Positions 1-1,818 of a stretch of DNA of 1,818 bases are shown one piece after another. A program made the position numbers and the translations under genes. The stretch is from Escherichia coli (GTDB lineage Bacteria > Pseudomonadota > Gammaproteobacteria > Enterobacterales > Enterobacteriaceae): assembly GCF_003334385.1 (NCBI RefSeq), contig NZ_QOWN01000108.1; one strand, written 5' to 3'. Position 1 is the first letter of the stretch; the number at the start of each line of letters is the position of its first letter. The notes beneath the pieces are model-generated. The model made no database searches and was not told the DNA's origin. It saw only the letters and a list, made by a program, of their open reading frames with translations.

Positions 1-632
1 GCCTGCCGGGGCAGCAGTATGATGAGGAGTCCGGCCTGTATTACAACCGCCACCGCTATTATGACCCGCTGCAGGGGAGGTATATCACTCAGGATCCGAT
101 TGGGCTGAAGGGGGGATGGAATTTTTATCAGTATCCGCTGAATCCGGTTCAGTATATAGATTCAATGGGACTGGCATCAAAATATGGACACTTAAATAAT
201 GGCGGATATGGAGCGAGACCCAACAAACCGCCTACGCCCGATCCAAGTAAATTGCCGGACATAGCGAAACAATTAAGACTGCCATATCCTATTGACCAGG
301 CCAGTAGTGCGCCTAATGTTTTCAAAACATTCTTCAGAGCATTAAGCCCTTACGACTACACACTGTATTGCAGGAAGTGGGTAAAACCAAATCTGACTTG
401 TACGCCACAGGATGATTCCCAGTATCCAGGGATGGATACAAAGACAGCAAGTGATTACCTGCCACAGACAAATTGGCCAACAACTCAATTACCACCAGGA
501 TATACTTGTGCAGAACCCTATTTATTCCCAGACATTAATAAACCCGATGGGCCAGCAACAGCAGGGATAGATGATTTGGGTGAAATTTTAGCTAAGATGA
601 AACAGAGAACATCGAGAGGAATAAGAAAATGA
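1..632 (+). CDS. Rhs-family polymorphic toxin, 3' end (5'-partial; codons in phase from position 3): conserved Rhs core terminus plus variable C-terminal toxin (CT) domain; stop TGA 630-632
   Basis: The frame is open from the window start to 632. Translation begins [57 protein letters not shown], which matches the conserved terminal block of the RHS repeat-associated core domain (E. coli RhsA-type cores end ...[30 protein letters not shown]...NP....DPLGL). The ATG at 165 given by the ORF track is internal (Met inside the demarcation motif), not the true start. Whether this is a full-length rhs or an orphan fragment (possibly ybfO/rhsO of E. coli K-12) cannot be decided from the window. Confidence 0.9.
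54..173 (+). other. Rhs core C-terminal signature block, ending in the core/CT demarcation motif [10 protein letters not shown] (144-173), a variant of the canonical PxxxxDPxGL
   Basis: Direct translation: [40 protein letters not shown]. Established knowledge: in Rhs/YD-repeat toxins the PxxxxDPxGL motif marks the end of the conserved core and the start of the variable toxin domain. Confidence 0.85.
174..629 (+). other. Variable C-terminal toxin (CT) domain of the Rhs protein, about 152 aa, activity unknown
   Basis: Sequence after DSMGL: [42 protein letters not shown]...[22 protein letters not shown]. It is proline-rich, has 3 Cys, and shows no HNH, HxxD, deaminase or other catalytic motif I can recognise by eye. 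Hand-counted GC is about 42% in 241-300, against about 59% in 1-120. Confidence 0.7.
614..619 (+). promoter_or_regulatory. Ribosome-binding site for the immunity gene, located inside the 3' end of the toxin ORF
   Basis: AGAGGA at 614-619, 9 nt before ATG 629. Confidence 0.6.
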
Positions 633-685
633 AAAGAGTTTTGTTCTTTTTGCTGATGATATTTGTTAGTTTTGGTGTTATAGCT
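629..685 (+). other. Predicted Sec signal peptide (19 aa) of the immunity protein; alternatively an uncleaved N-terminal membrane anchor
   Basis: [19 protein letters not shown] followed by DCEIQA. There is no lipobox (no L-x-[GAS]-C; an Asp separates Ala from Cys), so it is not a lipoprotein signal. Confidence 0.55.
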
Positions 686-1198
686 GATTGCGAAATACAA
701 GCTAAAGATCATGATTGTTTTACTATTTTCGCTAAGGGTACTATTTTTTCCGCGTTTCCTGTCTTAAATAATAAAGCCATGTGGAGATGGTATCAGAATG
801 AGGACATCGGTGAGTATTATTGGCAAACAGAACTGGGTACATGTAAAAATAATAAATTCACACCAAGCGGGGCGAGACTCTTAATTCGCGTCGGGTCACT
901 ACGCCTTAATGAAAATCATGCCATCAAAGGAACGTTGCAGGAGTTGATAAATACAGCAGAAAAAACGGCGTTTCTCGGCGATCGGTTTAGAAGTTATATA
1001 AGAGCGGGTATCTATCAAAAAAAGAGCAGTGATCCAGTTCAGTTGTTGGCAGTCCTTGATAATTCAATCATGGTAAAATATTTTAAAGATGAGAAACCAA
1101 CTTATGCTCGAATGACAGCACATCTCCCGAACAAAAATGAGTCTTACGAATGTTTAATAAAGATACAGCATGAACTAATTCGTAGTGAAGAGAAATAA
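629..1198 (+). CDS. ybfC: Putative Rhs immunity protein (RhsI-like), 189 aa, with N-terminal signal-peptide-like segment; uncharacterised
   Basis: ATG at 629 overlaps the toxin stop (ATGA, 629-632). A Shine-Dalgarno-like AGAGGA lies at 614-619, 9 nt upstream of the ATG. The N-terminus [22 protein letters not shown] has a basic n-region, hydrophobic core and V-x-A before the predicted cleavage site. Position immediately 3' of an Rhs CT domain is the canonical immunity-gene location. Hand-counted GC is about 30% in 631-720. The symbol ybfC is a tentative recollection of the E. coli K-12 189-aa YbfC downstream of ybfO and needs BLAST confirmation. Confidence 0.85.
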
Positions 1199-1357
1199 AA
1201 TCTCTTCCTGAGAAAACAAATTAATCATTGTGAAAAATTATATAACTCATGGAATAGGTGTTTATTTTGCGTTCCATTTGCAGGGAAAGATCACGTAACG
1301 CTACTTTTTTGTACTAAATAATTCGAATTTTAAGTTCAACAATTGAGATACTACTTA

Positions 1358-1388
1358 TTGTCTAAAGCTGTTTTTCATAGCTTATACA
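1358..1388 (+). promoter_or_regulatory. Candidate sigma70-like promoter for the H-rpt ORF (speculative)
   Basis: TTGTCT (1358-1363) and TATACA (1383-1388) each match consensus at 4/6, with a long 19-nt spacer, about 36 nt upstream of the ATG. In copy 2 the -35-like hexamer reads TTACCT. This is weak and unverified. Confidence 0.2.
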
Positions 1389-1413
1389 TGATCAAATACT
1401 CCTTACATAAATA

Positions 1414-1418
1414 AGGTG
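1414..1418 (+). promoter_or_regulatory. Ribosome-binding site for the H-rpt fragment ORF
   Basis: AAGGTG, 5 nt upstream of ATG 1424; the same sequence recurs at 1794-1798 before ATG 1804. Confidence 0.55.
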
Positions 1419-1423
1419 AACAA

Positions 1424-1678
1424 ATGGAACTTAAAAAATTGATGGAACATATTTCTATTACACCCGATTACAGACAAGCCTGGAAAGTGGTGCATAAATT
1501 GTCAGATATTCTACTGTTGACTATTTGTGCCGTTATTTCTGGTGCAGAAGGTTGGGAAGATATAGAGGATTTTGGGGAAACACATCTCGATTTTTTGAAG
1601 CAATATGGTGATTTTGAAAATGGTATTCCTGTTCACGATACCATTGCCAGAGTTGTATCCCAGGGAAAGATCACGTAA
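1424..1678 (+). pseudogene. ybfQ: Truncated H-rpt transposase N-terminal fragment (84 aa: 79 native codons plus 5 junction-derived codons QGKIT, then TAA)
   Basis: ORF 1424-1678 with RBS AAGGTG at 1414-1418. The last five codons are read from the leader of the second element copy. The symbol ybfQ is a tentative recollection of the 84-aa H-rpt fragment next to ybfC in E. coli K-12. Confidence 0.75.
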
Positions 1679-1818
1679 CGCTACTTTTTTGTACTAAATA
1701 ATTCGCATTTTATGTTTAAAAATTGAGATATTCCTTATTACCTAAAGCTGTTTTTCATAGCTTATACATGATCAAATACTCCTTACATAAATAAGGTGAA
1801 CAAATGGAACTTAAAAAA
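1661..1818 (+). mobile_element. H-rpt element 5' end, copy 2 (leader plus start codon), continuing beyond the window
   Basis: 1661-1818 aligns base for base with 1281-1438, with 8 mismatches in 158 nt by hand alignment, all between 1326 and 1361. Confidence 0.8.
1661..1818 (+). repeat. Direct repeat, copy B (158 bp, truncated by the window end), partner of 1281-1438
   Basis: Hand alignment at offset 380; the repeat probably extends beyond the window. Confidence 0.9.
1804..1818 (+). CDS. 5' start of a second H-rpt (ISAs1-family) transposase gene, 3'-partial; only MELKK is visible
   Basis: ATGGAACTTAAAAAA is identical to the start of ORF 1424, with the same upstream RBS (AAGGTG at 1794-1798). 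Intactness downstream is unknown. Confidence 0.6.

Follow-up and report, generated by a model that had tools for sequence, protein, structure and literature searches.

How does the 5′ part of one insertion sequence come to be joined, base for base, to the left end of another copy of the same element? This question is raised by a stretch of Escherichia coli DNA of 1,818 nt (the window), in which a transposase reading frame loses its homology within the gene and runs directly into a second element. The window is 100% identical to chromosomes of E. coli O16:H48 (K-12-type), where the gene order is kdpFAB-ybfA-rhsC-ybfB-orphan Rhs C-terminal fragment-ybfC-ybfQ-ybfL (full-length ISAs1 pseudogene)-ybfD-ybgA-phrB. 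It belongs to an array that we take to be H-rptC1, H-rptC2 and H-rptC3 of the K-12 RhsC element (ybfQ, ybfL and ybfD), from which it shows no sequence difference, being the same DNA. The structure of this array is already known and annotated: three tandem defective H-rpt copies at RhsC were reportedly described by Zhao, Sandt, Feulner, Vlazny, Gray and Hill (J Bacteriol, 1993), and the RefSeq annotation lists, in order, ybfQ with its C-terminus missing, an ISAs1 pseudogene interrupted by an internal stop, and ybfD with its C-terminus missing. What is added here is a reconstruction at population level, which covers the hybrid nature of copy 2, a duplication of 10 bp seen in other strains and the repeated collapse of the array. 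Positions outside the window are given for locus L001, which is the window with 9-kb flanks (window coordinate = L001 coordinate − 9000).

Table 1 Features of the 1,818-nt window.
Feature	Position	Strand	Basis or content
Rhs core end, orphan Rhs C-terminal fragment (rhsO/ybfO)	3..173	+	TIGR03696, NF041261
Variable C-terminal tip of orphan Rhs fragment, ~152 aa, presumed toxin	174..632	+	continuous frame 3-632
ybfC, 189 aa, WP_000832338.1	629..1198	+	ORF list and annotation
Spacer, 82 bp, ybfC to copy 1	1199..1280	.	homology with L006/L007
H-rpt/ISEc1 copy 1 (H-rptC1), element positions 1-380	1281..1660	+	left inverted repeat, 143-nt leader, transposase codons 1-79
Left terminal inverted repeat, copy 1, CAGGGAAAGATCACGTAA	1281..1298	+	pairs with copy 2 right end
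ybfQ ORF, 84 codons	1424..1678	+	79 transposase N-terminal codons, then 5 codons and stop from copy 2 inverted repeat
Copy 1/copy 2 junction, element position 380 joined to position 1	1660..1661	+	alignment
H-rpt/ISEc1 copy 2 (H-rptC2, ybfL), first 158 nt	1661..1818	+	element continues past window
Left terminal inverted repeat, copy 2	1661..1678	+	inverted-repeat pair
Start of copy 2 transposase pseudogene (ybfL)	1804..1818	+	stop at codon 18 just past window

The Rhs region upstream of the array

The left half of the window carries the end of a displaced Rhs gene, annotated as an RHS repeat-associated core domain protein with its N-terminus missing. Residues 1–57 of this fragment match TIGR03696 (Rhs_assc_core) with 72.7 bits (cutoff 32.5) and also NF041261 (RHS_core, profile positions 1205–1261), and no NCBIfam family was found in the tip past the core. 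The tip ends with a TGA stop at 630–632, which the start of ybfC overlaps (ATGA), and an NCBIfam search with ybfC returned no family; ybfC occupies the place where the immunity gene cognate to the tip would be expected. The layout of an orphan Rhs tip is present, with the core end motif (TIGR03696), a variable tip and a small ORF 3′ of it. Rhs loci with displaced C-terminal tips (Jackson et al. 2009, BMC Genomics 10:584, PMC2935791; E. coli W genome, PMC3032704) share with the window the rhs main gene, the orphan tip, the immunity-like ORF and H-rpt, the last of which PMC2935791 does not mention; unlike the work on those loci, our findings concern IS debris and not toxin/immunity modules. Within the spacer that follows ybfC, the first ~39 bp are common to other ybfC loci, homology with L006 and L007 stopping at L001 10237, and the last ~43 bp (1238–1280) constitute a copy 1-specific left flank, the 43-mer being confined to loci with that flank.

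Termini and family of the elements

Copy 2 is a complete element of 1,290 bp (L001 10661–11950) running from CAGGG to CCCTG, a length within the ~1.2–1.5 kb of the ISAs1 family, and is bounded by inverted repeats of 18–19 nt (CAGGGAAAGATCACGTAA / TTTCGTAATCTTTCCCTG(C)) which are 89% complementary. Used as a query, it matches independent loci from first to last base, among them yhhI, ydcC, a copy beside ybgA in O55:H7, and others; the CAGGG/CCCTG termini recur at no fewer than five independent loci, with independent copies of 1,290–1,291 bp. ISAs1-family elements listed in ISfinder likewise end in CAGGG...CCCTG, and their target-site duplications are of 8–10 bp. The 18-nt inverted repeats and the independent loci which share both end bases indicate that CAGGG is the true left terminus, as had been supposed from the window by itself.

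The family assignment made in the original prediction is borne out by the full-length transposase of yhhI, which scores 412 bits against NF033564 and contains PF13808 (DDE_Tnp_1_assoc, residues 8–94) and PF01609 (DDE_Tnp_1, residues 102–343). By these profile matches, the elements are classified as H-rpt/ISEc1, members of the ISAs1 family. ISEc1 (= H-rptB, yhhI) has the same termini and length of 1,290 bp and 96% nucleotide identity with copy 2; it encodes a single 378-aa transposase with both domains, whereas the window holds a 5′ fragment of 380 bp and the beginning of a pseudogene copy, neither of which encodes a catalytic domain within the window. H-rpt-bearing tips are listed in ISfinder, yet transposition has not been observed (PMC3032704), and our search of the literature on H-rpt, ISEc1, ISAs1/IS1358 and ybfQ/ybfL/ybfD found nothing mechanistic. 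No target duplication was found around the yhhI, ydcC, O55:H7, pF138-4 or yafV copies, nor at 1660/1661. Plasmid copies, considered as independent recent insertions that might calibrate the target duplication, turned out to be mostly chromosomal fragments, none with a duplication.

Copy 1 and ybfQ

The two copies in the window form a direct repeat (1281–1438 and 1661–1818) of 158 nt that is 95% identical, has a spacing of 380 nt and reaches the window end. Aligning the 20 nt upstream of each repeat copy revealed no similarity before CAGGG, so both begin at the identical base, confirming the earlier observation that a second leader starts at 1661 on the same base as at 1281. Equally, ORF and alignment agree that transposase homology (MELKKL...IARVVS) ends with codon 79 (TCC, Ser) at 1660, and the tail of ybfQ, QGKIT followed by a TAA stop, is encoded by the left inverted repeat of copy 2.

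ybfQ, annotated as a pseudogene with its C-terminus missing, contains Pfam DDE_Tnp_1_assoc (PF13808) on residues 8–80 (E=4e-27), and the Pfam search found no DDE domain in it; against NF033564 it scores 65.1 bits, under the cutoff of 70, as a fragment of an ISAs1-family member. With the N-terminal DDE_Tnp_1_assoc domain only, ybfQ is predicted to be incapable of catalysing transposition, and the array to be functionally IS debris. A promoter scan of the leader gave no sigma-70-like site on the + strand, with a count below the shuffle expectation.

The junction between copies 1 and 2

The 120-nt junction is present in 2,440 of 5,426 complete E. coli genomes, with at least 99% identity in 2,430 of them and as a single occurrence in nearly every case, and a pattern scan recovered the real junction from 21 metagenome contigs. 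It is therefore a real inherited structure, and not a product of chance or an assembly artefact. One divergent carrier, VCSW8, has a variant 2 nt shorter. Inspection of the sequences by eye revealed no microhomology at the junction.

From the window alone, the junction had been read either as a nested insertion of one H-rpt into another at codon 79 or as the product of recombination or deletion between tandem copies. A nested insertion led to the expectation that the remainder of copy 1 (...CISPAKFHE) would resume ~1.3 kb further on and that a short duplication would flank copy 2. Both are absent. In K-12 the sequence next to the right end of copy 2, CTTTTTGTACTAAAT..., belongs to copy 3, which begins there at element position 25, and the flanks of copy 2 are ...AGTTGTATCC on the left and CTTTTTGTAC... 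on the right. Copy 3 has its own leader and ATG, an internal deletion of ~313 bp and its own right end 75 bp before ybgA. The reciprocal junction that a nested insertion predicts was searched for with a query made of the right end, AGTTGTATCC and TGTATCAG..., under an E-value cutoff which passes solely junction-spanning alignments. It occurs in 0 of 5,426 complete E. coli genomes, the same design returning 2,440 for the real junction, and a right end followed by resumption at position 381 occurs in 0 contigs of a metagenome collection which does contain the locus. Of the three features that define an intact nested insertion, then, the exact terminus is present, and host resumption and flanking duplication fail, so the copy 1/copy 2 junction is not one. 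The downstream K-12 sequence and the absent reciprocal junction leave practically no room for a simple intact nested insertion of copy 2 in copy 1.

Nested insertion of copy 2 in copy 3

An intact nested insertion, sought in vain for copy 2 in copy 1, does exist for copy 2 in copy 3, solely in other strains. At locus L006 (FDAARGOS_1277), 11142–11175 correspond to host positions 1–34, 11176–12465 to a full copy, and the host resumes from position 25 at 12466. In this L006-type arrangement both termini are exact, host sequence lies on either side and a target duplication is present; the host overlap is of 10 bp (CTTTTTGTAC) and, as read from the sequence, is a textbook target-site duplication, the whole being an intact nested insertion of copy 2 in copy 3. 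The stub-bearing form (34-nt stub, copy 2, copy 3 from position 25) is found in 71 genomes, including ATCC 8739. The copy 2/copy 3 junction is common to K-12 and 1,355 genomes in all, and because K-12 shares it, copy 2 must at one time have transposed into the forerunner of copy 3.

The flanks in BL21 are those of L006 without the 34-nt stub, for which the simplest reading would be that a perfect 34-nt tandem repeat has lost one of its units. The reverse order, with the stubless BL21 type as the original and the L006 stub as a later duplication, is unlikely, as the stub end at 34 and the copy 3 start at 25 overlap by exactly 10 bp.

Copy 2 of K-12 as a hybrid

K-12 copy 2 and the copy 2 of L006/BL21 differ at 41 alignment columns, 32 of which lie within the first 363 nt. 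Over positions 150–380, K-12 copy 2 is identical to an element at yafV, which we call Y (232/232, 100%), compared with 94.4% identity to the FT130 element and 94.0% to L006 copy 2, whereas over positions 381–1290 the corresponding values are 98.0%, 99.7% and 98.9%. These opposite identity patterns identify copy 2 as a Y/resident hybrid. The Y match over 150–380, seen at the yafV and pptA Rhs loci, includes the TAA at codon 18. Y constitutes an independent lineage: its tract (positions ~184–364) is found at 4,550 places in 2,696 genomes, and independent Y elements lie downstream of other Rhs loci, beside yafV/ivy and pptA/yddH.

K-12 copy 2 changes from Y to resident sequence between columns 364 and 406. 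An insertion at 380 would produce a repeat starting exactly there, which we counted in favour of an insertion model. In VCSW8, the second element is of Y type over columns 184–849 and of copy 3 type afterwards, and its copy 1 carries neither the clusters private to copy 1 nor the Y markers. A Y tract that extends past 380, next to a copy 1 that is not Y, argues that the two units are different elements rather than a self-duplication.

The first ~138 nt of copy 2 (left end ACGTAACGCTAC; 84A, 97C, 100A) resemble copy 1, unlike the two sampled Y copies, and this sequence is specific to the RhsC array locus. Import of the first 180 nt of copy 2 together with Y was ruled out, the sequence being found at one locus only. 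The copy 1-like start of copy 2 thus calls for an extra, patchy gene conversion or for a Y variant outside our sample.

Structural forms of the array

In E. coli the locus exists in at least seven structural forms. The K-12 form has copies 1, 2 and 3; the 503025 form has copy 1 followed by a copy 2/3 hybrid with a crossover at columns 653–657; the O26:H11 form has a single element with crossovers at columns 137–182 and 653–657; and the NT1N28 form has a copy 1/2 hybrid, with a crossover at columns 271–315, followed by copy 3. FT130 and Ec40743 carry an element uninterrupted through position 380, BL21 and ATCC 8739 have copies 2 and 3 and no copy 1, without and with the 34-nt stub respectively, and VCSW8 combines its 2-nt shorter junction with the longer Y tract. 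At least four classes of crossover can be distinguished (O26 at 137–182; NT1N28 at 271–315; FT130 at ≥363; copy 2 × copy 3 at 653–657 and 849–883), a pattern indicating that the array collapses repeatedly through homologous recombination between its copies.

The FT130 element has the same left flank as K-12, is of copy 1 type through column 363 and then of K-12 copy 2 type; the elements of Ec40743 and PM22 resemble it. Exchange between copies 1 and 2 has eliminated the stop at codon 18 in FT130 and NT1N28, and the resulting transposase of 378 aa (WP_124047000.1 in FT130) is uninterrupted, with 98% identity to YhhI. The FT130 flanks are 100% identical to K-12 over 2,606 nt, compared with a difference of ~2% on the ybgA side for other junction carriers, so FT130 may have reverted recently instead of preserving the original target; against this, a reversion would need a crossover inside the last 17-nt identity block. 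The single element of O26:H11 was considered as the ancestral target and rejected, since its sequence combines K-12 copies 1, 2 and 3 in a three-way mosaic, with the private variants of copy 2 and the stop codon included, and it is thus a collapse product.

Origin of the junction

We consider that the junction is most likely the scar of an H-rpt-into-H-rpt insertion, the other half of which was later erased by recombination, and we give this reading a probability of roughly one half. Of the two possibilities raised originally, the simple nested model does not hold, and a combination of both, insertion followed by recombination between copies, provides the best reading. The starting point would have been a resident full-length H-rpt, X (type a+b+d, as uninterrupted in FT130), situated 82 bp downstream of ybfC, which would earlier have entered the forerunner of copy 3 and duplicated 10 bp there. 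An H-rpt of the second lineage, Y, would then have transposed into X, in the same orientation and just after position 380 (codon 79), joining its exact left terminus CAGGG to ...GTTGTATCC. This would have placed Y(381–1290) beside the displaced X(381–1290) as two direct repeats of ~910 bp, between which homologous recombination or single-strand annealing may have deleted the 3′ part of Y, the right junction and any target duplication. The outcome would be a copy 1 consisting of X(1–380) and a copy 2 consisting of Y(1–380)+X(381–1290), parts of whose first ~140 nt would subsequently have been homogenised by gene conversion between the adjoining copies; in the VCSW8 lineage, the structure would have been resolved by recombination with copy 3 instead.

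The uninterrupted element of FT130 and Ec40743, with the same left flank, a copy 1-type 5′ part and a K-12-type 3′ part, was counted in favour of a resident target X, and the insertion of copy 2 in copy 3 with its 10-bp duplication indicates that the family can insert into its own kind. A junction that falls on the first base of the element, free of visible microhomology, and the frequent recombination between the copies likewise speak for this history. Since no genome or metagenome contig retains the intermediate, we infer the insertion and the order of events rather than observe them. Nested IS insertions and IS-flanked recombination scars likewise place an exact terminus inside another copy and lose direct repeats by homologous recombination; here, in distinction, one of two junctions survives and the intruder is now a hybrid with its host. 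For the ISAs1 family, IS-mediated rearrangements in Aeromonas salmonicida (e.g. PMC3661141) offer a parallel.

An exact terminus would also result from one-ended or intramolecular transposition, in which the left end of a full copy downstream attacked an upstream H-rpt at 380/381, within one molecule or across sister chromatids, and the intervening DNA was deleted without a right junction or duplication ever being formed. Such an adjacent deletion explains why the reciprocal junction is nowhere found equally well as the nested model does, and it predicts what K-12 in fact lacks, namely the ~1.6 kb separating ybfC from copy 2 in BL21/ATCC 8739-type strains (an NTF2-fold immunity gene, a DUF6258 gene, an RHS fragment and the 34-nt stub). 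Copy 2 should then, however, be of BL21/L006 type throughout, and instead its first 364 nt differ at 32 sites, where it is of Y or copy 1 type; more conversion events would have to be invoked than under the nested model, and the Y tract of VCSW8 up to column 849 would be unexpected. We regard an adjacent deletion as unlikely. Improbable, in our view, is a tandem duplication of the first 380 bp through illegitimate recombination or slippage, independent of transposase and followed by gene conversion from other H-rpts. The head-to-tail arrangement of the units, the locus-specific sequence that copies 1 and 2 have in common (first ~45 nt and columns 84–138) and the gene conversion and mosaicism evident across the array all suit this explanation, but an endpoint on the exact terminus would be expected by chance in only ~1 in 1,290 cases, with no microhomology to guide it. 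Moreover, the units differ at 22/380 sites, in the form of a Y-lineage block that in VCSW8 continues for ~470 nt past the duplicated segment; a plain tandem duplication fits poorly with a copy 2 whose 5′ part comes from another element lineage than copy 1.

Consequences for the reading of ybfQ, ybfL and ybfD

The locus provides footprints of past transposition by H-rpt/ISEc1, an element supposed to be immobile, in the form of the 10-bp duplication (71 genomes) and the terminus-exact junction (2,440 genomes). The locus also illustrates how quickly homologous recombination and gene conversion can rewrite such an array, even rebuilding a 378-aa gene from two defective copies, and it leaves the current understanding of Rhs and IS biology unchanged.

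With its intact leader and start codon, and the N-terminal (putative DNA-binding) domain alone, ybfQ could conceivably act as a trans-dominant inhibitor or regulator at ISEc1 ends, like truncated transposase regulators of other IS. We consider this very improbable; if it were true, inhibition by ybfQ would help to account for the unobserved transposition of H-rpt in K-12-type strains. A related and similarly speculative idea is that two same-orientation H-rpt-into-H-rpt insertions at one locus might reflect self-targeting and not neutral survival. Because ybfQ, ybfL and ybfD all derive from a single IS array, of which they are three parts, and are not independent genes, phenotypes of ybfQ deletions (e.g. 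PMC12655312) should be read with that in mind. ybfQ is carried by 45% of complete E. coli genomes.

Transposition, decay and rebuilding of the H-rpt copies

Direct evidence of past H-rpt transposition is provided by copy 2 of the array beside RhsC, which is nested in copy 3 and bounded by a clean 10-bp target-site duplication, CTTTTTGTAC (71 genomes; FDAARGOS_1277 in the Table). This duplication was the sole ISEc1 insertion footprint among the copies inspected. At the Rhs locus of GB089 that adjoins yafV/ivy, we also observed a lone 15-nt left-end motif, CAGGGAAAGATCATC, which lies 99 bp upstream of a full element of the Y type, the separate H-rpt lineage found at other Rhs loci. The sequence following the motif is unrelated, and the motif may be another stub or scar.

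Although nominally the same element, copy 2 lost function independently in K-12 and BL21. Its inactivating stops differ: that of K-12, at codon 18, is a Y-lineage variant, whereas that of BL21 is at codon 93. FT130 and NT1N28 encode an uninterrupted 378-aa ISEc1 transposase (WP_124047000.1), identical to the full-length transposase YhhI at 372/379 positions. This open reading frame is the product of recombination between a defective copy 1 and a defective copy 2; two dead ISEc1 copies have yielded one rebuilt gene that is potentially live.

Table. Coordinates of features in and around the H-rpt array.
Feature	Locus	Coordinates	Strand
34-nt stub / target-site duplication around copy 2	FDAARGOS_1277 (L006)	11142-11175 / 12466-12475	
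Lone left-end motif	GB089 (L016)	2731-2745	
Copy 2, transposase pseudogene	K-12 (L001)	10804-11940	
Copy 2, transposase pseudogene	BL21 (L010)	3414-4550	
Uninterrupted transposase	FT130 (L012)	3184-4320	
Uninterrupted transposase	NT1N28 (L013)	3184-4320	
Copy 1/copy 2 junction	VCSW8 (L020)	4003-4012	
ATGA overlap	window	629-632	
ybfC	window	629-1198	
Inverted repeat, arm TTTTGCGTTCCATTTG	window	1265-1280	
Inverted repeat, arm CAAATGGAACTTAAAA	window	1421-1436 (also 1801-1816)	
Sigma-70-like match	window	1237-1264	minus

Array size and spread of the flanking module

In our survey of E. coli genomes, approximately 10 carried the copy 1/copy 2 junction at 95-99% identity. The junction of VCSW8 is 2 nt shorter (...GTTGTAT/CAGGG versus the usual ...GTTGTATCC/CAGGG), probably because the CCC run underwent slippage. 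As many as four copy 2/copy 3 junctions were counted in one genome, suggesting that unequal crossing-over has expanded the array in some strains.

We also compared the flanks of four loci (L001, L008, L009 and L020), taking the 1,400 nt ending at window position 1280 as the left side and ybgA/phrB as the right. The module of Rhs tip, ybfC and spacer is 100% identical across K-12, O26:H11, 503025 and VCSW8, and the ybgA side of the latter three differs from K-12 by about 2%. The module appears to have moved between lineages by recombination.

Features of the left flank

The orphan Rhs tip and ybfC overlap: the stop codon of the first shares bases with the start codon of the second (ATGA). The N-terminus of YbfC is hydrophobic and signal-peptide-like; neither YbfC nor the 152-aa tip matched any NCBIfam family. 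The sole sigma-70-like promoter match in 1150-1818 (TAAACA-16-TATAAT, 10/12) lies in the ybfC/H-rpt spacer, directed back at ybfC, and is probably meaningless, since the match count is below shuffle expectation. A 16-nt inverted repeat (88% complementary) pairs the left flank of copy 1 with the transposase start region, and is possibly a chance match.
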